Assembly (NCBI GenBank): GCA_014859085.1 | Contig: JACUUY010000002.1 | Location: 1-51,771 of the forward strand | Length of the DNA stretch: 51,771 bases | Reading direction: 5' to 3' | Source: a candidate division WOR-3 bacterium | Lineage (GTDB): Bacteria; Hydrothermota; Tepidihabitantia; SM23-42 | Program-made: the position numbers and the translations under genes | Notes under the pieces: generated by a model | The model's input: only the letters and a program-made list of their open reading frames with translations | The model's database searches: none | Told to the model about the DNA's origin: nothing | Shown here: one piece after another, positions 2,353 to 51,088 of the stretch | Layout of the letters: every line of letters begins with the position of its first letter | Position numbering within the stretch: the stretch's first letter is position 1

Positions 2353-5340
2353 ATGCCGAAGGCAATGTTGTTGTTCACTGCAATAGCGAGCCTCTTTGGT
2401 CGAACGACTCTGGACGCACCAGGTGGACGGGACTATCAGATCTTCTGCCATAACATCAACAACGTCGAACTGTGCGTGAGCAATTATGGTACATTCGGCC
2501 GGAGTGAGACCGGAGCCGGATGCTGGTGGCCGATCGGATCGGGCCATAACTACATCTTTGGCGCGGGGCCATGGGTCGGCGCACGGGATACTGTCATTGG
2601 CGATACCCTGGTCACGATCGGCTACGGCCCGCACGGCGGCGAGAGCGAGTTCGCGCCCGGGCTCTGCGGCATGCCGGTCACTCACCCGGATGCGATAATC
2701 TACGTGCATCCGCAACCGTGGCCGCCGCCCTCGGCGATTTTCCCCATGGCGCCGCAAGAACCCGTGTCGCACCAGGATTCCTGGTGTTGCTACAATGATT
2801 GCGATCCTGTTTATCATATTCCTGGAGATACCAGACCGCTCGGCATCGAGGTTTATCAATCGGTGTATGTCTGGAATTTGACACTGCTGTGTGATGTCGC
2901 CTATCTCGTCTACACAATAAGAAACAAGAGCGGGCAGAACATGCGAGATTTCTACTTCGGGATATGCGCGGATAATGACATCGGTAACGAGGCCGGCGCC
3001 CTGGCCAATGATTGCTTCGGCTACATTCGCGGGCAATACTACGTGATCGACGGAGATTCGCTGTGGATCGACGATCTCGTTTATCAATGGCAGGAGGGCG
3101 AGGAACCGGGCACGCCGCCGTGGGTTGCCGGGGTCATCGGCTACGATCTCATTCAGACTCCGTTCGACCTGGTAGCGGGAATGGACAAGGACGGCGACGG
3201 TATCCTCGATCAATACGAAAGGGATAGTGCTTACTACGTCAACAATCTGCCGGTTGATAAGTGGGATGTTGACCGCGACGGCGTGCCGGATTGGCGCGAT
3301 CCTTCTCAGATCCCACAATTGGGGATGACCGCTCTGCAGGTGTTCACGCTGGAGCTCGAGCCGAATCTTGACTTTGAACGCTATCTAAGCTTGGCCGGCT
3401 ACAATTTCCGGACGATGGTATATGAACCCTTCCCGACGGTGCCGATCCAGGATCCTGGTGACATACGCTACGTGCAGTGCAGCGGTCCGTTTGAACTCTT
3501 GGCTGATTCAACCGTCACGGTTGCGCTTGCCCTTGTCTTTGCAAACTGGGAGGGCATATACATGGCACCCGACACGGCAGTAGCACGCGTCGATCACTGG
3601 GCGCAATATGTATTTGACCGGAACTGGTTCGTGCCGGGTCCGCCGCCAGCGCCAGGATTGACGCTCGTTCCCGGCGATGCGAAAGTGACACTGGTTTGGG
3701 ATAACGTGCCCGAGCAGGTCGGGGATTCGTGGTTCGATCTTGTCGGCGTTGACCCCACCTCCCCCTTGTACGATCCTTATTATCTTCAGTATGATTTTGA
3801 GGGGTATCGGGTCTGGAAGAGTTTGACCGGGCGGGCTGGCAGCTGGGAGTTGCTGGCTTCGTATGATCTGGCCAACGGCATTGTCTTTGAGGATCTGGAC
3901 TTTCAGCCGGAGCCGTTGCGGGCGACCGATGCCGGGGTCGCGCATGTCTTCACCGACAACGATGTGCGTAATGGTTTCCTGTACTATTACGCGGTGACGA
4001 GTTTCGATTACAACATGGTGAAGACGGTGGTGGGTGACAGTGTCTTCCCGACGCCGGTCTGGTTCGAGAGCGGCAAGACCGCGTTAAGCGCCGTGCCCCG
4101 CCGCGACCCGGCGAATTACCTGGCGCCGGGTGAACCGGTCATCGAGTGGCTGTCTGGAAACCAGAACATCGCAGAACTGGTGAGCGCAGCCGTTGCCTTT
4201 CCCATGGCGATCGATCCGGCTTATCCGCTCTACATCGAGTATCTGGCCCAGGACACGGCGACCCTGTTCAGTGTTGATACGCTCGGCAATCCCGTGCCTT
4301 ATGACGGCGCGCAATACACCGCGCTCCTGAAGGATGGCCACGCGATCCTCGACACGATCCGTTATGCGGTGAAGATCGGGGCCGGTTATATACCGCACGA
4401 GATCGCGCCGCCGCGCAACGGGCTGCTCATCCGTCCGGATATCGGCACGCCCGAGCTGCCGGCCGGGTTCGCGGTTTTCGACACGGTTGAGATCGTTACC
4501 GGCAGCTATCCGGCGGGTTTCCTCGTTGCCGATATTGTCGCGCCCTTGCCCCAGGCCGCGGACAGCGCGGACACGCTCTATGACCGGGGCATATGGGCGT
4601 GGCGGGGCAATGACTATGAAGTCGTCTGGCGCCGCAAGGATCCGGGCGGGCCCGTGAACACGGTCGAGGTCAGGGACCTTGCGACCGGGATGGCGATACC
4701 CTATGCTACATTTCAGAACAATTCAGCAACGCGCCACCTCGGCGCGGGTTGGTGCTTTACCTGGCATGGCAGTCTGGGCCAGGTATGGACAAAGCAATCG
4801 CGCGATACGCTCCAGGCGCTCGGTTTGACCACGGAGCGGACGCGTTATCTCTATATCGACGGTGGTGTTGTGGGCTTGCGGAACAACCAGTATGTCCTTG
4901 ACACGATCCGGCCGGTCGAAGGTGAGACCTGGATCATCCGAGCCAATTCAGCATACCTCCCGGCTTCGGTCTACGGTTCGGTCAGGATCACGGCAACGCC
5001 GGCCGTTTTGACCGAAACGGCGGCGACACTCAACGTCAAGGTCGTGCCCAATCCCTACATCATTGCCAACGAATGGCAAACCCGGTCTGTTCAGCGCCGG
5101 GTGAGGTTCATCAACCTGCCCAATGAATGCACGATCAGGATATTCAATCTGAACGGTGAACTGGTGCGGACGCTCAAGCACCGGGAGACATCGGCGGGCG
5201 GTGTGCCCAATGATCTGGGCGGTGACGAGTGGTGGAATGTCCTGAACGATTTTGACCAGCTCGTCGCAAGCGGCGTCTACATATTCCACGTCCAGTCCGA
5301 CGTCGGCGAGCAGGTCGGTAAGTTCGTGATTGTCAACTGA
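2353..5340 (+). CDS. Large secreted protein of unknown function with TSP3-type Ca-binding repeats and a T9SS (Por) C-terminal sorting domain
   Basis: SD GGAGG precedes the ATG. The N-terminal signal peptide is MPKAMLLFTAIASLFG. Ca-binding motifs are DKDGDGILDQYE and DVDRDGVPDWRD. The C-terminal tail is VVPNPYII...CTIRIFNLNGELVRTL...ASGVYIFHVQ...GKFVIVN. The N-terminal ~430 aa are paralogous to the next gene. Confidence 0.85.
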   Translation: MPKAMLLFTAIASLFGRTTLDAPGGRDYQIFCHNINNVELCVSNYGTFGRSETGAGCWWPIGSGHNYIFGAGPWVGARDTVIGDTLVTIGYGPHGGESEFAPGLCGMPVTHPDAIIYVHPQPWPPPSAIFPMAPQEPVSHQDSWCCYNDCDPVYHIPGDTRPLGIEVYQSVYVWNLTLLCDVAYLVYTIRNKSGQNMRDFYFGICADNDIGNEAGALANDCFGYIRGQYYVIDGDSLWIDDLVYQWQEGEEPGTPPWVAGVIGYDLIQTPFDLVAGMDKDGDGILDQYERDSAYYVNNLPVDKWDVDRDGVPDWRDPSQIPQLGMTALQVFTLELEPNLDFERYLSLAGYNFRTMVYEPFPTVPIQDPGDIRYVQCSGPFELLADSTVTVALALVFANWEGIYMAPDTAVARVDHWAQYVFDRNWFVPGPPPAPGLTLVPGDAKVTLVWDNVPEQVGDSWFDLVGVDPTSPLYDPYYLQYDFEGYRVWKSLTGRAGSWELLASYDLANGIVFEDLDFQPEPLRATDAGVAHVFTDNDVRNGFLYYYAVTSFDYNMVKTVVGDSVFPTPVWFESGKTALSAVPRRDPANYLAPGEPVIEWLSGNQNIAELVSAAVAFPMAIDPAYPLYIEYLAQDTATLFSVDTLGNPVPYDGAQYTALLKDGHAILDTIRYAVKIGAGYIPHEIAPPRNGLLIRPDIGTPELPAGFAVFDTVEIVTGSYPAGFLVADIVAPLPQAADSADTLYDRGIWAWRGNDYEVVWRRKDPGGPVNTVEVRDLATGMAIPYATFQNNSATRHLGAGWCFTWHGSLGQVWTKQSRDTLQALGLTTERTRYLYIDGGVVGLRNNQYVLDTIRPVEGETWIIRANSAYLPASVYGSVRITATPAVLTETAATLNVKVVPNPYIIANEWQTRSVQRRVRFINLPNECTIRIFNLNGELVRTLKHRETSAGGVPNDLGGDEWWNVLNDFDQLVASGVYIFHVQSDVGEQVGKFVIVN

Positions 5341-5386: not shown

Positions 5387-5420
5387 TCAGTATAGTCTAG
5401 AGAGATTGGCTGGAGGGCAT

Positions 5421-6998
5421 ATGGAGAAATACGCGGTTGTTGCGTGTATTACCATTTCCCTGGCGACCGGGTCGGCAGAGTCTTCTCAACCGTCCAGGGC
5501 CTGGCAGATAGTAAGGCATGATACCAATCGGGTCGAGATGTGCATTTCCAACTACGGCAAATTCGGACAGAGTGAAGTCGGGGGCAGCGGCTGCTGGTGG
5601 CCTGCCGGATCGAACCATACCTACATTTATGGTGCAGGTTTATGGTTCGGCACGATCGATTCTCTGACCGGCGATACACTGGTGACGATCGGCTACGGAC
5701 CGCACGGCGGCGAGCATGAGTTCGCTCCCGGGCTTTGGAGTTGGCCGCCCGACCATCCCTGCGCGATCATATACATCCATCCGGAAAACTGGCCCCCACC
5801 GGGAGATACATTTCCCATGGCCCCTCAAGTCACGGTCTCCCACGAAGATTCATGGTGTTGTTTTAACGACTCCAATCCTGACTATCACGTTATCGGCGAC
5901 ACGCGGCCGATCGGCATCGAGGTCTATCAGACCGTGTACGCATGGGACGCTCCCGATATAGAAGACATAATTTTCTTCACGTACGAGGTGAAGAATGTCT
6001 CGGGGCACAGGCTCAACGACTGTATTATCGGCGTCGCGGCCGATTGCGACATCGGCAATGAAGCCGGAGCATATGCGAATGACCGATGCACGGGCATTGT
6101 ATGTCGTGAGTATGTCATTGACGGCGATACGATCGTCGTGGATGATGTTGCCTACCAGTGGCAGGAGACAGAGGAACCAGGCGCACCACCCTGGTTTCCG
6201 GGTGTTATCGGCTTCGATCTGCTCCAGACTCCGTTCGACCTTGTTGCGGGCATGGATAAGGATGGCGACGGGATCCCGGATGAGTATGAGCGGGACAGCG
6301 CATACTATGTGAATAACCTGCCTCTGTACATGTGGGACGTGGATAATGACGGTGTTCCGGACTGGCGCGACCCCTCGCAGTGGCCGCAGGTGGGCATGTC
6401 CGCGTTCAAGAAGTTCACGCTCAGCTCTGATCCGCTGATTGATGCAGAGCGGTATTCAGTCATGGCCGGGTATAATTTTGTGACGGGTCAATACGAACCT
6501 TACGATACGTTGATACCCGATCCGGAAGACCAGCGGTTTCTGCTTGCGAGCGGACCGTTCGATCTGGAACCCGATTCTGTTGTCACGCTCGTCTTTGCCG
6601 TGATGTTCGCCGACTGGCACGGCATATATCTGCGGCCGGACACGGCGCTGGCGCTGATCGATAAGTGGGCCGAGGATTACTACAACATGTACTGGTACCT
6701 GTACACGGGAGTGGAAGAGGATTTCGAATTGCGAATTTCGAATTGCGGATTGAGCATTACGCCAAATCCGGTTATGGGTTACGGTACTGTCCGATATGCA
6801 CTTCCCCGCACCGGGCATGTCACCCTGAGAATGTACAACTCCCTGGGTCAGGTAGTGGAGACGGTCTATGACGGCGTCAGGCCGGCGGGTGTTCACGAGC
6901 ACCATATTAACACGCGGGGACTGCCCCAGGGCGCGTATTTCCTCGTTCTGGAGACACCGGCGGCGAGAGAAAGACGGTCGCTTGTTGTTGTACGTTAG
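5421..6998 (+). CDS. Secreted paralog of the 2353-5340 protein (same N-terminal module, TSP3-type repeats, T9SS C-terminal tail)
   Basis: I prefer the ATG at 5421 (GGAGG 5412-5416) over the TTG at 5406. Shared blocks include CISNYGKFGQSE, GCWWPAGSNHTYIYGAGLWFG, TIGYGPHGGEHEFAPGL, SHEDSWCCFND, MDKDGDGIPDEYERDSAYYVNNLP and DVDNDGVPDWRDPSQ. The C-terminal tail is ITPNPVMGYGTVRYALPRTGHVTLRMYNSLGQVV...GAYFLVL. Confidence 0.85.
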   Translation: MEKYAVVACITISLATGSAESSQPSRAWQIVRHDTNRVEMCISNYGKFGQSEVGGSGCWWPAGSNHTYIYGAGLWFGTIDSLTGDTLVTIGYGPHGGEHEFAPGLWSWPPDHPCAIIYIHPENWPPPGDTFPMAPQVTVSHEDSWCCFNDSNPDYHVIGDTRPIGIEVYQTVYAWDAPDIEDIIFFTYEVKNVSGHRLNDCIIGVAADCDIGNEAGAYANDRCTGIVCREYVIDGDTIVVDDVAYQWQETEEPGAPPWFPGVIGFDLLQTPFDLVAGMDKDGDGIPDEYERDSAYYVNNLPLYMWDVDNDGVPDWRDPSQWPQVGMSAFKKFTLSSDPLIDAERYSVMAGYNFVTGQYEPYDTLIPDPEDQRFLLASGPFDLEPDSVVTLVFAVMFADWHGIYLRPDTALALIDKWAEDYYNMYWYLYTGVEEDFELRISNCGLSITPNPVMGYGTVRYALPRTGHVTLRMYNSLGQVVETVYDGVRPAGVHEHHINTRGLPQGAYFLVLETPAARERRSLVVVR

Positions 6999-10380: not shown

Positions 10381-10434
10381 CTAACTACCGTACTTTTTTC
10401 CAAAAATGCGGGAAAGTACCTCAACTGCCATCAT
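10381..10434 (-). CDS. Candidate mini-ORF (MMAVEVLSRIFGKKYGS) at the 3' end of repeat element copy A
   Basis: GGAGG lies 3-6 nt upstream of the tandem ATG ATG. The TAG stop is 9 nt before the ATG of the radical SAM activase, which itself lacks a good SD. The start position aligns with the mini-ORF start in copy B. Confidence 0.2.
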   Translation of the reverse strand: MMAVEVLSRIFGKKYGS

Positions 10435-10523
10435 CTGCCTCCACGAATTTTGCCCAGATCTTCGGTCTGGCTGTAAAATTCAGCGTCCAGCACTTTCGTC
10501 AGAGAGTGCGGGAGAATTGCCTC
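10429..10523 (-). repeat. Conserved structured intercistronic element, copy A (two hairpins plus SD plus start codon)
   Basis: The core 10444-10488 matches 18441-18485 at 42 of 45 positions, although the flanking genes are unrelated. Hairpin 1 is CCAGCACT...AGTGCGGG. Hairpin 2 has an outer stem GAATTTT/AAAATTC and an inner stem CCAGA/TCTGG. In copy B the inner stem is CCATA/TATGG, a G:C to U:A compensatory change. Confidence 0.6.
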
Positions 10524-10989
10524 AAGTGCCCTGAATTGCCCCGATCTCTTGTATTATCGCGTCCACTACTCTCGGTATGCTTTCTTTGACTTTCTGTGTG
10601 CATTCTTCGCTGAATGAATCATTATCCTCTATTTCGATTCCGTAGATCTCTGTCTTTTCGGGAATTGCCAGATTGAATTTCCTCCCGAGTTCCAGTGCGG
10701 TCGTAAAATTTATGCCATGCGAAGAAAATGAATGAACGTTTGTGAATGATGCGCTATCGATTTTATGGATGTCGCCCGGTCTTCCGTTTTCGGTCTTGAC
10801 CGAATCGATGAAGAACACTCGATCATAGTCAACGATTTCATCGAGAATAGCCAGACCGTCAATACTTCCCCACTTGACATCAACAGTGCTGTGTTTCAGT
10901 TTTCGGGCCAGTAGCTCAGCGACTTTGATACCCGCGCTATCGTCGCATCGGTAAGGATTGCCAATGCCATAGATCAGTATTCTCTTCAT
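10522..10989 (-). CDS. [NiFe] hydrogenase maturation endopeptidase
   Basis: The sequence MKRILIYGIGNPYRCDDSAGIKVAELL...FIDSV is typical of the HyaD/HybD/FrhD protease family. The gene lies directly downstream of the large subunit gene. Confidence 0.9.
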   Translation of the reverse strand: MKRILIYGIGNPYRCDDSAGIKVAELLARKLKHSTVDVKWGSIDGLAILDEIVDYDRVFFIDSVKTENGRPGDIHKIDSASFTNVHSFSSHGINFTTALELGRKFNLAIPEKTEIYGIEIEDNDSFSEECTQKVKESIPRVVDAIIQEIGAIQGT

Positions 10990-13658: not shown

Positions 13659-15767
13659 TTATTTATTCATTTCCTGCACAATTTCCACGAACTTATGGGC
13701 TTCATCCTTGCCGATCCACTCCAGCCGAACTTGGTTGCCTGCCATTCCAAGCGACTCCAGATTGAGTTTCAGGATCTGCTCGCGGGCCTTTGCCCGGAAA
13801 TTGCCCCGCGCATAGTGGCAGGCGTGGGGGTAACAGCCGCCGATGAGCACGCCTTTGGCGCCGTTGTTCAGGGCAAGCATGATATGGGATGGATCCACGG
13901 CACCGGTGCATGGAACACGGATGATCTTGACATTGCCAGGATAGCCCAGTTTGTCCTGCGCGGCCCTTTCGGTGGCGTTGTAGGCTGACCAGCGGCACAG
14001 AATGGCGACGATGTCTCCTTGTTGGGCCAGCTCTCGGATCTGCTCGCGCAGTCCTTCATGGTTCCACCCTTCCAGCTGGCTTGCGTAAGCCGGGCAGGTG
14101 ACCGAGCAGATACCGCAACCCATGCACAATTCCTCATTGATCTTGATCTTGTCCTCGACGACCGATATCGCACCGTAGGGACAGGTTCCGATGCACATGC
14201 GGCAGACGCTGCACAGGTCCTCATCGACGACGGCCTGGTTGATCTTCGTTTCAATCTCTTTCTGGGCCAGAAGACTCAGTGCCGAGTGCGATGCTTTGCG
14301 CGCGTCGATGAGGGTTTCGGCGACACCGCCCGGGAAAGTGGCCGCACCAGCCGTGAAAATGCCCCTGGGAAGTTCGGTATTGCTCAGTCCCGCATTTTCA
14401 TAGAGTACTGGAAAATCCACGGTCAAATTGATCTTCAATTTACTGAACGTCTCGACGTCGGGGACAAAACCGGAGCTCAGGACGACATTGTCGACCTCGA
14501 TCTCCATCAGCTCATTGGTGAACAGGTCTTCGGTCCTGACCGCCAGTTTCCCGTTCCATCTGAATACTTCAGACGGCTTACCCTTGATGAACGATACGCC
14601 CTTCTCGCGGAGCGTGTTATAGAGGTATTCAAACGTACCGTAACTCCTCATGTCCATGGCGGCCACGTAGACCTGGACGTCCGGATAACGGTCGATGATC
14701 AATTTTGCCTCCTTCAGTCCGAGCAGGCAGCAGATCTTTGAGCAGTATGGCAGGTGCTTTGAATCACGCGAACCGGCGCAGTAGATGATCGCGACTTTCT
14801 TCGGGCGCAGGGTTCCGGCCGCCACCGCACGCTCGAATTCGAGCGTCTTCATGACGCCGTCCAGACGGCCATAGCCGTATTCTTCGACCCGGCTCACGTC
14901 GTACCAAAGCAGGCCCGTGGCTACGATCACGGCCCCGGCTGCGATCTCGCTTACCTTTTCTTGTTCATTGAGATCGATCCTGCCGGGACAGACCTTAACG
15001 CATTCGCCGCAGCGCGTGCACGCCGCAAAATCGATCGCGTACATGTCAGGATAAGTGGGCACGTAATAGATCGCCTTTCTGCTCTTGCCCGCGTCGTCGA
15101 TTTCAACCGGACAAACATCAATGCACTTGCCGCAGTTGATGCATTCCTGAACGCCGCGCGGTCTGGTCACTAATTCTATTTTGTAGTCGCCAACCCGGCC
15201 GCTGACCTTAGTTATTTCGGTATTGCAGAGCGATACCGCATTTTTCTGCGACTGCATCGTGTTGATCAGGGGCATTAGCGTGTGGCTGTAAGGTGTTCCC
15301 TCAGGATACAGGCGGTCCAGCTTGGCCACGGTTCCGCCCAGGAACGGGGTCTTTTCGATCAGCGTCGTTTCGATTCCATTCTTGCTCAGCTGCGCCGTGA
15401 CTTCAATACCGGCGATCCCGCCGCCGATGACGAGTGCTTTCCGGCTGCTGATCTGGAAGAACTTTGTCTTGACCGGCCTGGTTTTCTCCATCTTCGCGAC
15501 CGCCGCGTTGATCATTTGTTCTGCTTTTTCAGGCCGGTGGCCGATCAGGAAGACATGTTCAAGGATATTCACGAATTCGGCATTGGTACCCGGGAACAAT
15601 CCCTCAAGCAGGTTCGGACTGCAGGCGGCGATCACTACTTTCTCATCGGGCGCGATCTCAGGTTTGGTTTTGCACAGGTCATCGAACTCCTCGACCTTGA
15701 CATCCGGGCCGAGCTTGAGTTTCGGCAGTTTGAGCGAGTTGTGGCAATTACACATCAATACTCTCAT
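13659..15767 (-). CDS. hdrA: HdrA-like flavoprotein fused to a C-terminal MvhD domain
   Basis: FAD motif: LVIGGGIAGIEVTAQL. Ferredoxin motifs: CINCGKCIDVCP, CTRCGECVKVCP, CSVCRMCIGTCP and CMGCGICSVTCP. HdrA signature: YCAGSRD...YCSKICC. The MvhD-type C-terminus reads ILCRWSAYN...RVPCTGAVD...GVLIGGCYPHACHY. I prefer the ATG at 15767 (GGGAGG 6 nt upstream) over 15773. Confidence 0.9.
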   Translation of the reverse strand: MRVLMCNCHNSLKLPKLKLGPDVKVEEFDDLCKTKPEIAPDEKVVIAACSPNLLEGLFPGTNAEFVNILEHVFLIGHRPEKAEQMINAAVAKMEKTRPVKTKFFQISSRKALVIGGGIAGIEVTAQLSKNGIETTLIEKTPFLGGTVAKLDRLYPEGTPYSHTLMPLINTMQSQKNAVSLCNTEITKVSGRVGDYKIELVTRPRGVQECINCGKCIDVCPVEIDDAGKSRKAIYYVPTYPDMYAIDFAACTRCGECVKVCPGRIDLNEQEKVSEIAAGAVIVATGLLWYDVSRVEEYGYGRLDGVMKTLEFERAVAAGTLRPKKVAIIYCAGSRDSKHLPYCSKICCLLGLKEAKLIIDRYPDVQVYVAAMDMRSYGTFEYLYNTLREKGVSFIKGKPSEVFRWNGKLAVRTEDLFTNELMEIEVDNVVLSSGFVPDVETFSKLKINLTVDFPVLYENAGLSNTELPRGIFTAGAATFPGGVAETLIDARKASHSALSLLAQKEIETKINQAVVDEDLCSVCRMCIGTCPYGAISVVEDKIKINEELCMGCGICSVTCPAYASQLEGWNHEGLREQIRELAQQGDIVAILCRWSAYNATERAAQDKLGYPGNVKIIRVPCTGAVDPSHIMLALNNGAKGVLIGGCYPHACHYARGNFRAKAREQILKLNLESLGMAGNQVRLEWIGKDEAHKFVEIVQEMNK

Positions 15768-17346: not shown

Positions 17347-18399
17347 CTATTTCGCTTCAACGATGGTTTTGGCGATATCTTCGGGCAGGACGCCGGGTGA
17401 TTCGATCTTCTTTTCGGCATAGGTCTTGGTCAGCTCTTCTTCGATCACATCGCGGTCAAAGTTTTTGTTTTTGAGGGCATTTTCCACATCATTGAGCGCC
17501 GCCTTTGGAAAGAGGTTAAAATCGCCGGAGACGACGATATCTTTGATCCGCGTTTTGTTCTCGATCTCCTCGGCGCTTCTTATCAGACCGCCTTTTGCCT
17601 TGTAGAGACCATAGAGGATCTCGATGCCTTCCTTTATTTTTACGCCCTGAGGAATACGCGGTGTCTTCTTATGGAGGAATTCATCAGACATGAACCACTG
17701 TTCGATCTCTTTAATCTTCCTGATCGTGGCATCATCGAGGGTGACCGGTTCCAGCCGTCCCAGGATACGCTCGAAGTTCTCGACCAGGATGCGTTTGATC
17801 TCGTTCCTGGCAGGGATCTCGCCCAGCTCGCGTTTCATGGTCGTGAGGTTCTCTTCCATGCTTTTGTATATTTTGTCGCGGAATTTCTCGTCGGGCACTT
17901 TGAGCACCCGGCTCATGGTCTCATAATCAAAATCCATCAATATACCGCCGACAAAGACCATGGAATCGCCGATGTCACCGCCGCCCTCACCGGCGATCTT
18001 CTTACCTTTATCGGTAATGATGTCATTCTCGGCGCGGAACGAGGCGTTGATGCCGAACGCGCGATAGGTTTCGCACGCCGGCACTGAGAGATACTGGAAG
18101 ATCTCTTTGATGTTGCGGGGAAGCTTTGGATTCCTGGAGTTCCAGATCACTTGATAAAATATCTGGTTCTCGTCAAGATAGGTCGCGCCGCCGCCGACTT
18201 CCCGGCGCATGACCGAGATATTATGCTGCGCGCAGTATTCCAGGTCGATCTCCTTTTCCGCGTCCTGGAAATAACCGACGCTGGCCAGCGGTTGCGCCGG
18301 TGACACGATAATGAGTCCTTCGTAGCCGAGCCGCGCCAGGGCGTGGAATATGAGCATCGAATCCTGCCCCGGCATTTTGTCCAGATTCAGAACGTTCAC
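17347..18399 (-). CDS. lplA: Lipoate--protein ligase family protein (LplA-like)
   Basis: The BPL/LplA/LipB catalytic domain is recognisable: SVGYFQDAEKEIDLEYCAQHNISVMRREVGGGATYLDENQ and the conserved-Lys region DKGKKIAGEGG. The start is GTG, preceded by AAAGGAG. Confidence 0.85.
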   Translation of the reverse strand: MNVLNLDKMPGQDSMLIFHALARLGYEGLIIVSPAQPLASVGYFQDAEKEIDLEYCAQHNISVMRREVGGGATYLDENQIFYQVIWNSRNPKLPRNIKEIFQYLSVPACETYRAFGINASFRAENDIITDKGKKIAGEGGGDIGDSMVFVGGILMDFDYETMSRVLKVPDEKFRDKIYKSMEENLTTMKRELGEIPARNEIKRILVENFERILGRLEPVTLDDATIRKIKEIEQWFMSDEFLHKKTPRIPQGVKIKEGIEILYGLYKAKGGLIRSAEEIENKTRIKDIVVSGDFNLFPKAALNDVENALKNKNFDRDVIEEELTKTYAEKKIESPGVLPEDIAKTIVEAK

Positions 18400-18428
18400 T
18401 ATTTTTCTCCTTTCTCAATAATGGTCAT
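18399..18428 (-). CDS. Candidate mini-ORF (MTIIEKGEK) at the 3' end of repeat element copy B
   Basis: GAAGG lies 6 nt upstream of the ATG. The TAG stop (18401-18399) overlaps the GTG start of lplA (18399-18397) by one nucleotide (TAGTG). Confidence 0.2.
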   Translation of the reverse strand: MTIIEKGEK

Positions 18429-18512
18429 ATTGTGCCTTCGCGAATTTTGCCCATATCTTCGATATGGCTGTAAAATTCAGCGTCCCGCACTGGAGTGCGG
18501 GGGTATTGCCTT
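18426..18512 (-). repeat. Conserved structured intercistronic element, copy B
   Basis: It has the same architecture as copy A. Hairpin 1 is CCCGCAC-uCCa-GUGCGGG (18484-18501). Hairpin 2 spans 18442-18478, with the outer stem GAATTTT/AAAATTC and the inner stem CCATATC-GAA-GATATGG. The glcD-like reading frame terminates at a TGA inside the conserved core. Confidence 0.6.
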
Positions 18513-19922
18513 GTCCGCCTTGCCAACCGGCAGTACCTTCCCCGGATTGAGGACATTCTTCGGGTCGAACGCCTGCTTTATCTTCTTCATCAACGCGATC
18601 TGCTTTTCATCCAGCGCCATTGCCAGGTAAGGTATTTTCGAAAGGCCGACGCCGTGTTCGGCTGTTATCGCGCCGCCCAGCGAGAGAGTGATCTCGTATA
18701 TCTCACGGCGCATCCGATCGATGTGCGCGGCGTCCATGTTCCTTGTCTTATCGATGCTCACATCGGCATGGATGTTTCCGTCGCCGAGGTGGCCGAAGGT
18801 GTAGACCGTAGCGTCATACTTGCCGACGCATTCCTTCAACCGGCTGATGAGTTGAGGGATCTGTTTTTTGGGAACGACGAGATCTTCGCGCGCCACGTTC
18901 TTGGTCAGTTCTTTCAATGTGTCGCCGACCTTCTTGCGGGGCTCCCACATTCTTTCTTTATCCCTGGTTCCCTCGGCCACGAGTATGTCGAGCGCGCCGT
19001 GTTTCAGCGCTATCTCGCCGATACGGTCATAGGTTTTCCTTACCGTTTTCTTGTCATCGCCGTCAATCTCGACGATCGTGTGGGCGTTCGCATCCATGTA
19101 GGGTATTTGTCGCGCAAGGTACTTTGATACCATGTGCACCACATCGCCCTCCATGAATTCGATTGAGGCCGGCATGAGGCCGGTCTGCATGACCTCCACG
19201 GCAAAATCCGTTGCTTCTTCGACGCAGGCAAAGGGGACGAGAAGGTCAACGATGACCTTGGGCAGGGGTAGGACCCGGATCGTCGCTTCGGTCACGATGG
19301 CGAGGGTTCCTTCTGAGCCGGTGATCAGGTTAATGAGGTCGTATCCAGTGGCGTTCTTCAGTAATTTGCCGCCCATCTTCAGCACCGTGCCGTCGGCAAG
19401 AACAGCGGTGATGCCGGTTACATAGTTTCTTGTCACTCCGTATTTCATTGCCCGCGGTCCGCCCGCGCACTCGGCAATATTGCCGCCGATCGTGCATGAA
19501 TCGAGGCTGACCGGGTCGGGCGGGAAGAAAAGGCCATGTTTTGCCAGCTCTTTGCCCAGTTGTTCGGTGACGATGCCGGGTTGGGTCGTGACCATCATGT
19601 TGTCCTCGTCGATCTCGACTATCTTGTTCATTCTCTCGAGCGAGAGGACGATGCCGCCGTGAATGGGCACGGCGCCGGCCGACAGGCACGTGCCGCCGCC
19701 CCGAGGCGTGACCGGGATGTTGTTTTCGTGGGCAAGAAGCATGATCCGGGCCACCTGGTCCGTGGTATCAGGCCGAACGACTGCTTCGGGCATTGCCTTG
19801 TACAACGGTGTTTCGTCATGCGCGTAGTTCTCCAGGGTCTCCGGGTCGGTAATGACATTCGCCGCCCCGGCGATCTCTATCAACTCGTGGAGTATCCGGT
19901 CATCGACCTTGGCATAGGGCAT
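18477..19922 (-). CDS. glcD: FAD-linked oxidase, GlcD / D-2-hydroxyacid dehydrogenase family
   Basis: The FAD_binding_4 region is IPVTPRGGGTCLSAGAVP and the C-terminal oxidase domain shows FGHLGDGNIH and ITAEHGVGL. The usual family ending NPGKVLP is followed by 16 extra residues encoded by repeat copy B. Confidence 0.9.
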   Translation of the reverse strand: MPYAKVDDRILHELIEIAGAANVITDPETLENYAHDETPLYKAMPEAVVRPDTTDQVARIMLLAHENNIPVTPRGGGTCLSAGAVPIHGGIVLSLERMNKIVEIDEDNMMVTTQPGIVTEQLGKELAKHGLFFPPDPVSLDSCTIGGNIAECAGGPRAMKYGVTRNYVTGITAVLADGTVLKMGGKLLKNATGYDLINLITGSEGTLAIVTEATIRVLPLPKVIVDLLVPFACVEEATDFAVEVMQTGLMPASIEFMEGDVVHMVSKYLARQIPYMDANAHTIVEIDGDDKKTVRKTYDRIGEIALKHGALDILVAEGTRDKERMWEPRKKVGDTLKELTKNVAREDLVVPKKQIPQLISRLKECVGKYDATVYTFGHLGDGNIHADVSIDKTRNMDAAHIDRMRREIYEITLSLGGAITAEHGVGLSKIPYLAMALDEKQIALMKKIKQAFDPKNVLNPGKVLPVGKADKAIPPHSSAGR

Positions 19923-44499: not shown

Positions 44500-46998
44500 T
44501 TAAGCCAGCGCCTTCCAGATCATCTGCTGCAAGCCCATGACATTGATCTTGCCGCCGCCGTTGTCGGCGGCAGCGGTTGCCGCGTTCTTAAGCACCTGCT
44601 CGCAGGTAGCGCAGGCCGTCACGATCGTATCGACTTTCGTCTTCAGCGCTTCCTGGACGCGATTGGCCGCGATGCGGTTCGAGAGCTGATTGTCCGAGAC
44701 GAGGATACCGCCGCCGCCGCCGCAGCAGCGCGACGTGTTGTTCTTGTACTTCATCTCGACAAGCTCGAGGCCGATCTGCTTTATGATCTCCCTCGGTTCT
44801 TTCGTGATCTTGGCGCCCCGTGACAGGTCGCATGGATCGTGGTAGGTCACCTTGCCGGTCAGTTTCTTTATCTTGGCCGCCGGTAGTTTCTCGGCGATCA
44901 CCTGCATCGCGTGCTTTGCCTTTATTTTGTACGCTTCATTCAGGTAGACGGTACACGTCGGGCAGAGCGTGATCGCGGTGTCGTACGGGAAGAGTTCCTT
45001 GAATTTCCTCTTGTGTTCTTCAAAATCCTTGACAAAGCCGAGCGCTTCCATTGGATAGCCGCAGCACACTTCCTTAACGACCTTGGGCTTGATACCGATC
45101 TTCTCGAACAGCTTCAAGTACATCTTGGTCTGGTTGGGCCGGGCGAGGAACTGACAGCCGACAAAGACCGGTGTCTCTCCTTCCTGCAGCGGCGCCATCA
45201 CTTCGGTGTCGGCGAAAATATTGCCGGTTTTCTTGATATTGTCGATGAATGCCTTATGGCTGTCGTAGGCGAATCCGGCCTCAACAAGATCGGCGCGGGC
45301 AGCACGTACGATGTCCGGCACCTTGACCTTCGAAGGACAGCGGCGGTTGCAGTCGCGGCAAAGCGTGCACTGGTAGAGGGCACTGACGACCGAATCATCG
45401 ATCTCGAGTTCTTTTTCGAGCATACCGTAGGACAGAACGACGCGTCCCCGGCTCGAGGGAGGATCCCAGAGCAGATCGGTGAAAGTGGGGCAGACGTTCT
45501 TGCAGTAACCGCACATCGTGCAGGTCATCATTTCGTTTTCCCACTTTGCCAGGTGGCCTTCGAGTTTCCGTTTCGGATCGGTCGGATACCGCAATTCATG
45601 GACAAAATCGTCTTCCCACTGCCATAGTTTGTGCGGGTTCATGATATTGTTCGGGTCGAGCGCTTCCTTGATCACTTTCATCATCGGGATCGCGGTCTTC
45701 CTTTCGCGTATGAAATCGGGCGCCTTGGTCATGCCGATGCCGTGTTCGCCCGTTGTCGTGCCGCCCAGGGCATGTATCAGCTCGTAGATCTCCTTGACCG
45801 CGCTCTTTGCCTGTTTCCAGTGTTCGGGATTAGCTGCGTTCATCAAAACCTTCGTGTGCAAATTGCCGTCACCGACGTGTCCGTAGGGCGGTATTATTAG
45901 ATCGTACTTCTCGGATATCGCCCAGATACCGGCGACCGCTTTGGGGATCTTGGAAATAGGCACGGCCATATCGTCCGCGAGCATCGTTGTCGTGTATTCT
46001 TCCTTGAGCAGGCTCAAGGAGGGCAGCATCTGTTTCCGCGCCTTCCACAATTCGGTTATGCGTTTCTCGTCTTCCGTGAAATCGACTTTGATCGCGCCGG
46101 TCTGTCTGCAGATTTCGCCGACGATCTCGATATCCCTCTTCACGACTTCGGGCGCACCGTCCAGTTCGATCAACAGCATGCCGGCAACCTCAGGTAGGCC
46201 CATGTTGGTCGCTTTGTTGACCGCTCTGATGCACGGTTCGGACATTATCTCGAGTTCGGATGGGATCAGCGGTTTCGCAATGATATTGGCGACGCATTGT
46301 CCGGCTTTTTCCAGGTCGTCGAACGCCGCAACGCAAGCCGCGATCTTTGCCGGTTTGGGGGCGATACGGATATTCGCTTCGGTAATGATGCCGAGCGTGC
46401 CTTCAGACCCGACCAGCAACCTTTCAAGCTGGTAGCCGCTCGAATGCTTGATCGTATTGGTGCCGGTCCTTACTATCTCGCCGGTCGGCGTGACGACCTC
46501 AAGTCCCATCACGTAATCGCGTGTTGCGCCGTATTTCACAGCTTTGCCGCCTGACGCGTTGAGCGCGACCATGCCGCCGACGGTCGCGACTTCACTCGAA
46601 GCCGGTCCGGGAAAAAAGAACTTATAAGGTGCGAGTGCGGCATTGAAGTCATCGCACACGACACCCGGCTCAACGACACAGTAGAGATCGCTAACGCGGA
46701 CATCTCTTATCTTATTCATCCGCTGCATGTCGACAACAACGCCGCTGTCAATGGGCACCGCCGCGCCGCAGAGTCCTGAACCGGCACCGCGCGGCACGAG
46801 CGGTATTTTGTGCCTGTTTGCGAGCTGCACGATCTGCTGGACTTGTTTTGTATTCTGAGGTTGGACCACAACGTCCGGCTTCTTGCGATGGATGCCGCCA
46901 TCGAACGCATAGACATACAGTTCGGCATTGTTCGTCCCGCAATATTCATTACCAACGATATCACGCAATTGCTCGATTATTTCTTTCTTGACTGGCAT
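44500..46998 (-). CDS. Fusion protein: GlcD-like FAD-linked 2-hydroxyacid dehydrogenase + 2x[4Fe-4S] + two CCG domains (GlcF/HdrD-like)
   Basis: The FAD domain shows IPLVPRGAGSGLCGAAVP and the oxidase C-domain shows YGHVGDGNLH and TTGEHGIGM. The ferredoxin motifs are CTMCGYCKNVCP and CTLCRDCNRRCP. The CCG motifs are FVGCQF...EVCCGYP and YHDPCDL...SRCCGGGGG. Confidence 0.92.
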   Translation of the reverse strand: MPVKKEIIEQLRDIVGNEYCGTNNAELYVYAFDGGIHRKKPDVVVQPQNTKQVQQIVQLANRHKIPLVPRGAGSGLCGAAVPIDSGVVVDMQRMNKIRDVRVSDLYCVVEPGVVCDDFNAALAPYKFFFPGPASSEVATVGGMVALNASGGKAVKYGATRDYVMGLEVVTPTGEIVRTGTNTIKHSSGYQLERLLVGSEGTLGIITEANIRIAPKPAKIAACVAAFDDLEKAGQCVANIIAKPLIPSELEIMSEPCIRAVNKATNMGLPEVAGMLLIELDGAPEVVKRDIEIVGEICRQTGAIKVDFTEDEKRITELWKARKQMLPSLSLLKEEYTTTMLADDMAVPISKIPKAVAGIWAISEKYDLIIPPYGHVGDGNLHTKVLMNAANPEHWKQAKSAVKEIYELIHALGGTTTGEHGIGMTKAPDFIRERKTAIPMMKVIKEALDPNNIMNPHKLWQWEDDFVHELRYPTDPKRKLEGHLAKWENEMMTCTMCGYCKNVCPTFTDLLWDPPSSRGRVVLSYGMLEKELEIDDSVVSALYQCTLCRDCNRRCPSKVKVPDIVRAARADLVEAGFAYDSHKAFIDNIKKTGNIFADTEVMAPLQEGETPVFVGCQFLARPNQTKMYLKLFEKIGIKPKVVKEVCCGYPMEALGFVKDFEEHKRKFKELFPYDTAITLCPTCTVYLNEAYKIKAKHAMQVIAEKLPAAKIKKLTGKVTYHDPCDLSRGAKITKEPREIIKQIGLELVEMKYKNNTSRCCGGGGGILVSDNQLSNRIAANRVQEALKTKVDTIVTACATCEQVLKNAATAAADNGGGKINVMGLQQMIWKALA

Positions 46999-50164: not shown

Positions 50165-51088
50165 TTAGAGTTCTAAAGTGTCCACGGCGTTCTTGATGAC
50201 GGTAATTGATTCCTCGAATTCGTGTCGCTCTTCGATCGTCAATGTCAATTCTATTATCTTCTCCACGCCGCCGGCACCGATGATCGCCGGTACGCCCAGG
50301 CAGAGATCTCTCACGTCATACTCACCCTGGAGGCAGGCTGAGACGCACAACACCCGCTTTGCATCCTTGATGATCGCCTCCGCAATCTCGGCGATCGCCG
50401 CGGCCGGTGCATAATGGGCAGTTGCGGTCTTGAGGTGTGAAAGGATCTCCGTCCCTGCGGTCCTGGTTCGCTTGATCAATTTGTCGATCCTTTCCGGAGG
50501 CAGCAATTGAGTAATGGGTATCCCTTCGACGCTGGCATACCGTGGGATCACGACCATGAAATCATGATGCCCGCCAATGACGACCGCGGTCGTATTCGCA
50601 GTCGAGACCTGCAGTTCCTTGGAGATGAATTCACGCAGCCTCGACGTGTCCAGGACGCCGGTCATGCCGATGATCTTCTTCGGGTCGAATTCACCCTTCT
50701 TCCAGAGGTAGCAGGTCAGGGCATCAACCGGCTCAGTTACGTTTATGATTATCGCTTCGGGCGCGTATTGTTTGATCTGGAGAATGAGCGGGTCCATTAC
50801 CCTGGCATTTGTTTCCAGGAGGTCGAGCCGGGACATCTGTGGCTTCCTTACGTGGCCGGCAGTTATGATCACTACTTCTGACCCGGCGATATCCTCCATG
50901 TTGTCTGAACCGTCGATCTTTGCGTCGTAGTACCTGACCGGTGCAGCTTCCATCAGGTCGAGGGCATTGCCTTTGGCCCTGCCTTCCACGACATCGACGA
51001 GCATAACATCGGCAAAGTTCTTTTCTCCGATGTAGAAGGCAGCGTTCGCACCAACATTGCCCGCGCCGATAATGCTTACCTTTTTCAT
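50165..51088 (-). CDS. Divergent MDH/LDH-family 2-hydroxyacid dehydrogenase (tandem paralog)
   Basis: It has the same fold signature (KKVSIIGAGNVG, HVRKPQMSRLDL, GVLDTSRLR) but altered conserved blocks: VTEPVD instead of NPxD, and IGGHHDFMVVI instead of GGHGDxMVP. SD GAGGAGG precedes the start. Confidence 0.85.
   Translation of the reverse strand: MKKVSIIGAGNVGANAAFYIGEKNFADVMLVDVVEGRAKGNALDLMEAAPVRYYDAKIDGSDNMEDIAGSEVVIITAGHVRKPQMSRLDLLETNARVMDPLILQIKQYAPEAIIINVTEPVDALTCYLWKKGEFDPKKIIGMTGVLDTSRLREFISKELQVSTANTTAVVIGGHHDFMVVIPRYASVEGIPITQLLPPERIDKLIKRTRTAGTEILSHLKTATAHYAPAAAIAEIAEAIIKDAKRVLCVSACLQGEYDVRDLCLGVPAIIGAGGVEKIIELTLTIEERHEFEESITVIKNAVDTLEL

Follow-up and report, generated by a model that had tools for sequence, protein, structure and literature searches.

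The DNA analysed here, referred to as the window, is a stretch of 51,771 nucleotides from a candidate division WOR-3 bacterium (assembly GCA_014859085.1, contig JACUUY010000002.1), on whose minus strand the genes for a GlcD-like flavin adenine dinucleotide (FAD) oxidase, an LplA-like lipoate ligase, HdrC, HdrB, HdrA-MvhD, MvhG, MvhA, a hydrogenase maturation protease, an NrdG2-type radical S-adenosylmethionine (SAM) activase, a radical SAM/SPASM protein and tyrosyl-tRNA synthetase follow one another in this order. Two spacers of this array, glcD/lplA and protease/nrdG2, each contain a copy of a homologous element of about 100 nt (window 18422-18520 and 10425-10531, both on the minus strand). 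The unit consists of a GC-rich hairpin with a variable loop (P1), joined through a short ACRCU linker to a second hairpin (P2), which is long and bulged, for a core of about 66-70 nt; ACGCUGAAUUUU follows P1, and a purine-rich tail follows P2. The features of the two copies are the following:

10425..10531, minus strand: copy 1, full match to covariance model R1 (121 bits, E 1e-35), between the hydrogenase maturation protease gene (10989-10522, minus strand) and the NrdG2-like radical SAM gene (10371-9664, minus strand)
10437-10490, minus strand: core of copy 1, matched by covariance model R2 (73 bits)
10487..10512, minus strand: P1 of copy 1, CCCGCAC (10512-10506), 12-nt loop, GUGCUGG (10493-10487), from the sequence, the strain alignment and the fold
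10442..10485, minus strand: P2 of copy 1, CGC-U-GAAUUUUAC / AG bulge / CCAGACC-GAA-GAUCUGG / GCAAAAUUC-GUG
10518..10540, minus strand: three direct repeats of about 10 nt, GGCA(A/C)(T)-type, GGGCAATTCA GGGCACTTGA GGCAATTCTC, on the 5' boundary of copy 1 and sharing sequence with the 3' end of the protease gene
18422..18520, minus strand: copy 2, match to model R1 (107.6 bits, E 2e-31), between the GlcD-like FAD oxidase gene (19922-18477, minus strand) and the LplA-like ligase gene (18399-17347, minus strand)
18434-18487, minus strand: core of copy 2, matched by model R2 (82 bits)
18484..18501, minus strand: P1 of copy 2, CCCGCAC-UCCA-GUGCGGG, of the short-loop type (8-nt deletion)
18439..18482, minus strand: P2 of copy 2, CGC-U-GAAUUUUAC / AG / CCAUAUC-GAA-GAUAUGG / GCAAAAUUC-GCG

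The initial annotation of this stretch had proposed that the two regions are homologous and structured in spite of unrelated flanking genes, and this is borne out. A repeat search of the window returned them as one family (D4), 10429-10494 versus 18426-18491, 66 nt aligned without gaps at 86% identity; allowing a single 8-nt indel, in the loop of P1, homology spans about 10531-10425 versus 18520-18422, from the AGGCAAT box to the purine-rich tail. The 45-nt core (10444-10488 versus 18441-18485) shows exactly the three differences originally listed, two of which form a compensatory pair, G-C to U-A. The window contains the core pattern twice and none of 100 shuffles contains it; together with covariance-model scores of 121 and 108 bits, this excludes chance as the source of the repeat. 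No third copy was detected in the 51.8-kb window, either by the default covariance model search or by an exhaustive one with filters off. Comparison with Rfam 15, also suggested in the initial annotation, gave no match at the gathering score over the whole window, and at E<=10 the two 351-nt regions produced chance matches only, none overlapping the hairpins.

The two hairpins as originally drawn needed some revision. The CCCGCAC/GUGCGGG pairing of P1 holds for copy 2; in copy 1 the window reads GUGCUGG, with one C.U mismatch, and perfect pairing is found only in the sister-strain contigs L005 and L007. P2 is better described by 3+9+7 bp (19 pairs) with a 2-nt bulge than by a 7-bp outer and a 5-7-bp inner stem; in copy 1 its inner stem has one C.A mismatch. 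The glcD reading frame of the window runs through P1 of copy 2, its last codons and stop (UGA, 18479-18477) falling within the copy.

Structure statistics were computed on 12 aligned units (alignment A5), the window copies and those from related genomes listed further below. Within P2, 91.6% of the cells are paired, compared to 20-48% in shifted controls where the partners are slid; 7 out of 19 pairs are changed on both sides, and the covariation score is above that of all 500 shuffles. In P1, pairing is maintained across units that differ in inner sequence and in length, such as CAC/GUG, GAG/CUC and CUUUUU/AAAAGG. The terminal loop of P2 varies (GAA, ACA, AAA or AGA), the bulge varies as well, and the P1 loop ranges from 4 to 12 nt, the stems being the most conserved part. 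Stems which are conserved or compensated, next to drifting loops, indicate on sequence grounds that structure alone is selected, as had been supposed from the compensatory pair of the two window copies, and not an aptamer, for which the reverse pattern would be expected. Predicted folding of the single copies is uneven: the sense RNA of copy 2 has a z of -4.0, that of copy 1 folds no better than shuffles (z = +0.10), and the complements of both copies reach about -3 to -4.

Near-consensus TTGACA-16-TATAAT promoters are located, in the window, 5' of glcD, hdrC, mvhG and the gene for the SPASM radical SAM protein. The promoter scan of the window found none belonging to lplA or to the nrdG2-like gene, so that each element is intercistronic and precedes the final gene of its transcription unit. 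No sigma-70-like promoter is contained in the element on the gene strand, in keeping with the earlier statement that it does not fit the promoter rule of this genome. The flanking cofactor-type genes are also as first described: the ligase product matches the LplA-like models TIGR00545/PF21948, and the activase matches the NrdG2-type model TIGR02495 with 177 bits, above its cut-off.

Additional copies were searched with models R1 and R2 in loci anchored on LplA homologues (about 1.4 Mb). Seven further loci were found in related WOR-3 contigs, for a total of nine loci and 12 units:

L011: one copy at the protease/nrdG2 junction
L014, L090 and L091: copies at the glcD/lplA junction
L098: copies at both junctions, each with a nested second unit
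L099: one copy in the lplA/hdrC spacer, on the opposite strand

In eight of the nine loci the element is in gene orientation and directly 5' of either lplA or the nrdG2-like gene. The gene order glcD-lplA-hdrCBA-mvhGA-hycI-nrdG2-rSAM-tyrS is conserved across WOR-3 with or without it, and about half of the close relatives sharing this order have no element at one or both junctions. Some ten relatives that are equally close have none at the junctions inspected; it is absent in L009, L010, L013, L088, L092, L096, L100 and L101, of which L088, L092 and L100 are empty at both junctions. The glcD-lplA spacer of L099 is likewise empty (AAGGCAATT^GAGGAG) where those of L090 and L098 are filled.

The L099 copy, 3' of lplA and ahead of the hdrC promoter, is bracketed by a perfect 27-bp inverted repeat (1470-1496 and 1631-1657), with which it makes up a 188-bp module resembling a miniature inverted-repeat transposable element (MITE) and present in no other locus examined; all other copies have internal hairpins and no terminal inverted repeats. 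At both junctions of L098, a complete second P1'-P2' unit (6194-6260 and 14397-14462) is nested at the identical point of the outer P2, which it disrupts. The two inner units are 94% identical to each other, the two outer ones about 80% (by eye, not computed).

Imperfect direct repeats of the RGGCA(A/N) type flank eight of the nine non-nested units (for the L099 copy, GGGCTCAGAG / TGACTGAGAG), and nested units are devoid of such flanks. In copy 1 of the window the motif is found again just 3' of P2 (GGAGGCAGA, 10441-10433); three arrays of GGCA repeats occur in the window versus 0.34 in shuffles. Arrays of the GGCAAT type, with a spacing of ~10-11 nt, recur in WOR-3 intergenic spacers with or without a P1-P2 unit:

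window 10518-10540, minus strand: GGCAAT array at copy 1
L068 17827-17880: GGCAAT array, no unit
L097 17-60: GGCAAT array, no unit
L014 1575-1610: GGCAAT array
L016 8628-8651, minus strand: GGCAAT array, no unit, in an unrelated spacer

The array of the window, like that of L011, coincides with the last codons of the protease gene.

Outside the lplA-anchored loci, plasmid and phage collections gave no match to the element, and viral contigs contained no match to a relaxed 25-base pattern. A strict pattern, GAATTTTACAGCCN{8,24}GGCAAAATTC, had no match in GTDB genomes, being too strict for diverged copies; in JGI metagenomes it had two (L001 and L002), both fortuitous and located in coding regions without relation to the element.

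The element is confined to one sub-clade of WOR-3 on the LplA tree. Its core is 72-92% identical between genomes in which the four-fold sites of lplA are only 31-56% identical, that is near saturation. The 8-nt deletion in the P1 loop is common only to the monophyletic group formed by the window, L090 and L091, which points to vertical inheritance under constraint. P2 of copy 1 is 90% identical to that of copy 2 and 74% identical to its positional counterpart in L011, unlike P1 and the left flank of copy 1, which match their positional counterparts; this suggests, judging from the alignment, intragenomic conversion.

Most relatives without the element feature a different hairpin across the glcD stop (CCAAACTCATGAGTTTGG), and other WOR-3 genomes contain at the same two junctions an unrelated family of repeats, here called element B, ~130 nt long and forming a long imperfect hairpin (GGCGGTTTTCGGTTGC...GCAACCGACAAACGAAAAC):

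L017 11795-11930: element B, protease/nrdG2 junction
L027 9815-9960: element B, glcD/lplA junction
L012 335-425: element B, glcD/lplA junction

Many WOR-3 genomes (L009, L010, L011, L014, L088, L091 and L098, e.g. L091 9955-9975) have a conserved CCAGCATCC-AACCC-AACCC box ~40-50 nt 5' of the lplA start codon; it is duplicated in L098 and L014. The window and L090 have lost the box by deletion, and their element directly adjoins the Shine-Dalgarno region. Other short tandem motifs occur in the same spacers, ACGAAT-type (TACGAATACGATCTACGAATCACGAT), TTAGGTATT and GTCAAATGACAAATGA repeats (L010, L014, L022, L024 and L068; L018 and L025).

The element is thus real, structured and new to Rfam; it belongs to a known kind, that of small palindromic intergenic repeats, and does not constitute a new class of riboswitch, nor is it a leader dedicated to lplA or to the radical SAM gene. 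The interpretation we put forward, at about even confidence, is that the two copies are members of a small family of two-hairpin palindromic repeats, similar to repetitive extragenic palindromic (REP), BOX or MITE sequences, which are maintained at operon junctions and would punctuate the transcript by their hairpins in front of its final gene. Copies are inherited vertically, partly homogenised within a genome and sometimes lost; at times they have been duplicated, reaching another spacer, turning up inverted, or nesting in the P2 of a copy already there. Each element would be transcribed as part of a polycistronic mRNA, ahead of its final gene, and its stable hairpins would there serve as punctuation independent of orientation, by protecting the 3' end of the upstream message, by causing partial termination, or by offering a site to a double-strand-specific RNase. 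Expression of the distal accessory gene would be lowered or uncoupled as a result. Such a role at the RNA level, exerted on the glcD-lplA and mvhGA-hycI-nrdG2 mRNAs, is probable by analogy with REP sequences in malEFG, Correia elements and the RNase III sites of phage T7; a processing or stability element, one of the options of the initial annotation, remains the most plausible RNA-level role.

REP sequences and bacterial interspersed mosaic elements (BIME) of enterobacteria and pseudomonads are, like the WOR-3 element, short imperfect palindromes in intergenic, often intercistronic, spacers, polymorphic for presence and absence, and REPs work in either orientation. When transcribed within operons, they stabilise the upstream mRNA against 3' exonucleases, as in malE-malF. 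REPs are single palindromes of about 20-40 nt with a conserved 5' GTAG, present in hundreds of copies and associated to a cognate REP-associated tyrosine transposase (RAYT). In contrast, the WOR-3 element is made of two different hairpins (66-105 nt) and is found in one or two copies per sampled locus; no GTAG lies beside either hairpin in the two window copies, and no RAYT was seen in the window. The S. pneumoniae BOX and the enterobacterial repetitive intergenic consensus (ERIC) sequences, or intergenic repeat units (IRU), are similarly modular intergenic repeats built from sub-units, lineage-restricted and predicted to form stable stem-loops in RNA, and they too lie close to genes or between them. 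How they affect adjacent genes is only partly understood; they are dispersed genome-wide in more than 100 copies. No sequence relationship links them to the WOR-3 element, which in the loci sampled is limited to one gene array.

The Correia repeat enclosed elements (CREE) of Neisseria, like other bacterial MITEs, are non-autonomous elements of about 100-150 bp with inverted repeats; they are comparable to the WOR-3 element in having sites filled in some strains and empty in others, and in their insertion between co-transcribed genes. Correia hairpins are cut at the RNA level by RNase III, with changes in mRNA stability, and each element ends in defined inverted repeats of 26 bp and has a TA duplication. 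In WOR-3, terminal inverted repeats surround the L099 copy only, the flanking RGGCA repeats are imperfect, and nested units are inserted without duplication. The intercistronic RNase III sites of T7 early mRNA, of the R1.1 type, resemble P2 in architecture only, both having a lower and an upper stem and a small asymmetric bulge or internal loop. In such signals structure counts over loop sequence, and the upstream message is left with a protective 3' hairpin. The 3+9+7-bp P2 with its 2-nt bulge would be compatible with a bulged helix of ~20 bp of the RNase III type; the host is bacterial, and a second hairpin, P1, is present.

Several observations weigh against the interpretation as punctuating repeats. 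The copy search covered the window and the lplA-anchored loci, and all nine loci fall within three spacers of a single gene array, an unusual distribution if the repeat were of a generic, dispersed kind. A Pfam search of the window found no transposase or RAYT. The role in RNA is drawn by analogy. No U-tract follows either hairpin, as correctly noted at first, and a terminator scan reports no site at the elements; the elements do not have the make-up of an intrinsic (Rho-independent) terminator, a GC-rich stem directly followed by a U-tract. Departures from pairing are about equally G.U (6 cells) and A.C (10 cells), and in five of eight units folding is more favourable, by 3-10 kcal/mol, for the strand complementary to the genes than for the gene strand itself. 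These counts and fold energies do not establish a sense-strand RNA; they agree just as well with an antisense RNA or a role in DNA, and with either strand as the acting one.

Much of the same evidence may be read in terms of purely selfish DNA, a non-autonomous MITE-like or REP/RAYT-like hairpin element, possibly moved as single-stranded DNA, preferring GGCA-repeat targets and its own P2 loop, in which hairpins are kept for transposition and any effect on RNA is incidental. This is possible, if on the unlikely side. Close relatives with filled and empty sites are what is expected of a MITE. The inverted L099 copy in its 27-bp repeat, the double nesting at one position with inner units more alike than outer ones, the RGGCA-type repeats around almost every unit, the GGCAAT arrays without a unit in L068, L097 and L016, the lack of strand bias between G.U and A.C and the presence of a second, unrelated family in the same spacers all find a place in it. 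The initial annotation had regarded copies scattered irrespective of strand and gene starts as the mark of a generic REP or MITE, and the inverted and nested copies go part of the way in this direction. A selfish element, on the other hand, would hardly be limited to two copies in 51.8 kb and, in the approximately 1.4 Mb of lplA-anchored loci, to three spacers of one array; the shared derived deletion denotes long vertical inheritance, and conservation far above that of synonymous sites is unexpected in a dead insert. The window shows no transposase or RAYT, the plasmid and phage collections gave no match, and nested units have no clear target-site duplication.

A bolder version, which we consider unlikely, is that the two junctions are actively kept punctuated by two unrelated hairpin families, the present one and element B, recruited to them in different WOR-3 lineages, and that the ~66-nt P1-P2 unit represents a previously undescribed hairpin-targeting mobile unit, inserting without target duplication at one point of the P2 loop and beside GGCA decamer arrays through a single-strand-DNA (HUH/RAYT-type) mechanism new to the phylum.

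A dedicated cis-regulatory RNA, either a riboswitch or a protein-binding leader coordinating lplA and the radical SAM genes, was among the options first raised, and was suggested by the position of the copies before cofactor-maturation genes. It agrees with the eight loci in gene orientation directly 5' of lplA or the nrdG2-like gene, with covariation and strong conservation, and with the purine-rich 3' tail, which abuts the Shine-Dalgarno region in the window and in L090. It seems decidedly improbable, given that unpaired positions vary and stems are conserved, contrary to what ligand sensing would require. A specific link to these genes is also not sustained by the distribution: roughly one in two close relatives of identical synteny lacks the element, the L099 copy is inverted and 3' of lplA, between this gene and the hdrC promoter, and two unrelated genes are preceded by the element. 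Moreover, the element lies anywhere between 0 and about 190 nt from the start codon (in L014, L091 and L098 it is 60-190 nt away from the lplA start, with the conserved CCAGCATCC box in between), no terminator-like expression platform is present at the elements, the nested insertions of L098 disrupt P2, and Rfam has no match. The "lipoate" theme is weak as well. The lipoyl synthases LipS1/LipS2 are BioB-like (PMC9585515); since the radical SAM proteins of the window match NrdG2 and SPASM-type models and are not BioB-like, a tie to the LipS1/LipS2 pathway is rejected.

That the element acts as a DNA-level site, a cruciform or protein-binding palindrome with phased GGCA repeats recognised by a regulator, a nucleoid protein or a recombinase, or att-like repeats bracketing lplA-hdr-mvh, is very doubtful. 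The window copies do form direct repeats on either side of an 8-kb lplA-hdrCBA-mvhDGA-hycI block, the GGCA repeats are phased by about 10-11 nt, and G.U and A.C are tolerated symmetrically. The gene order is however ancestral in WOR-3 and exists without the element, which rules out an hdr-mvh cassette inserted between direct repeats, and the occurrence of different base pairs at the same stem position within one genome favours intrastrand pairing over half-site recognition. The attC consensus (R''(RYYYAAC)...R'(GTTRRRY)) is absent on both strands, so that an integron attC-like site is discarded, and no integrase or recombinase was found in the window by Pfam search. A sigma-54 promoter in the GGCA repeats was also rejected, their spacing being, by eye, incompatible with TGGCAC-N5-TTGC.

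The initial annotation had finally drawn attention to mini-ORFs (small open reading frames) closing both copies, with stops abutting or overlapping the downstream start, and to a possible translational-coupling cassette:

10381..10434, minus strand: mini-ORF of 17 codons after copy 1 (MMAVEVLSRIFGKKYGS*), specific to the window and not a feature of the family
18399..18428, minus strand: mini-ORF of 9 codons, MTIIEKGEK*, whose stop overlaps the lplA GTG by 1 nt

The overlap is thus right for copy 2; the mini-ORF of copy 1 ends 9 nt before the nrdG2-like ATG, without overlap, and is absent from the L011 and L098 copies at the same junction. The copy 2 mini-ORF corresponds to the conserved native leader and Shine-Dalgarno region of lplA, outside the repeat (GACCATTCTTGCGAAAGGAG in L091); this stretch is homologous to GTGACCATTCTTGCGAAAGGAGACGAATG in L091 and TTGACTATCCTTTTGGAAGGAGAAGAATG in L011, and the leader is conserved also where the element sits 60-190 nt further upstream. 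Mycobacterial interspersed repetitive units (MIRU) are intercistronic repeats of 40-100 nt with small reading frames overlapping the flanking genes, as in the window. MIRUs are tandem direct repeats without strong hairpins. The WOR-3 mini-ORFs, in contrast, are not conserved and show no coding signal.

The frame DAEFYSQTEDLGKIR... has no stop within the core of any of the six full copies looked at first, out of 12 units in the whole comparison; L011 has a 43-codon ATG reading frame overlapping the protease stop and the nrdG2 start, and ATGA overlaps occur in copy 1, copy 2, L011 and L098B. Variable columns are distributed by codon position as 11/10/11 in every frame, three other frames of this palindromic sequence are equally open, stops interrupt three units (L099 and the inner units of L098), no start codon is conserved, and an apparently conserved Tyr is replaced by C, H, R or S. 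A six-frame peptide query against 5.8 billion proteins had no match at E<=10, with low power, as the known case P0006 was not recovered. A small MIRU-like coding or coupling cassette is on these grounds scarcely credible, and the codon-position counts and non-conservative changes rule out a small peptide or precursor of a ribosomally synthesised and post-translationally modified peptide (RiPP) 5' of the two radical SAM genes.

Other observations concern the genes around the repeats. In the window GlcD carries a C-terminal extension of ~15 residues through P1 of copy 2 (18477-18525, minus strand), and it lacks the hairpin that usually spans the glcD stop. Compared with two contigs of the same species, L003 and L005, GlcD is only 90% identical and all neighbouring proteins are 99-100% identical, which hints at a recombination tract. 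In relatives (L088 3819-6619; L090 5628-8431; L091 1691-4500; L093; L100), a histidine kinase and a sigma-54-dependent response regulator are encoded 5' of glcD, directly or a few genes upstream, and this pair is absent there in the window. Metagenome-assembled genomes (MAGs) of Thermoplasmatota and other archaea likewise have lplA directly followed by hdrC-hdrB, and Syntrophales have lplA homologues at 59-64% identity (loci L029-L038, L058, L062, L072 and L076 for the two observations together), so that the lplA-hdr linkage is far wider than WOR-3. Elsewhere in the window, 2517-3339 and 5588-6410 contain two 300-nt direct repeats, 71% identical and with an identical spacing of 3071 nt, which indicate tandem paralogous large genes (reading frames 2353-5340 and 5406-6998, neither with a Pfam match). 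An 832-residue fusion of GlcD-like FAD oxidase, 4Fe-4S and CCG (HdrD-like) domains (44500-46998, minus strand) is the second lactate/glycolate-oxidase-type enzyme of the window, and adjoins an L-lactate/malate dehydrogenase gene (50165-51088).

WOR-3 is an uncultured phylum for which, to our knowledge, no non-coding elements have been described. The repeats reported here provide it with a structured repeat family supported by covariation, and with models applicable to complete MAGs; at the same time, a tempting and unsupported candidate, that of a "lipoate riboswitch", is removed. The nested and inverted copies, together with the second family that shares these junctions, offer small clues to the spread of intergenic repeats through WOR-3 genomes. 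If the hairpins set the expression of the lipoate ligase and of the radical SAM activase relative to the abundant hdr/mvh and glcD cistrons, they would represent a simple form of operon punctuation outside the model phyla.

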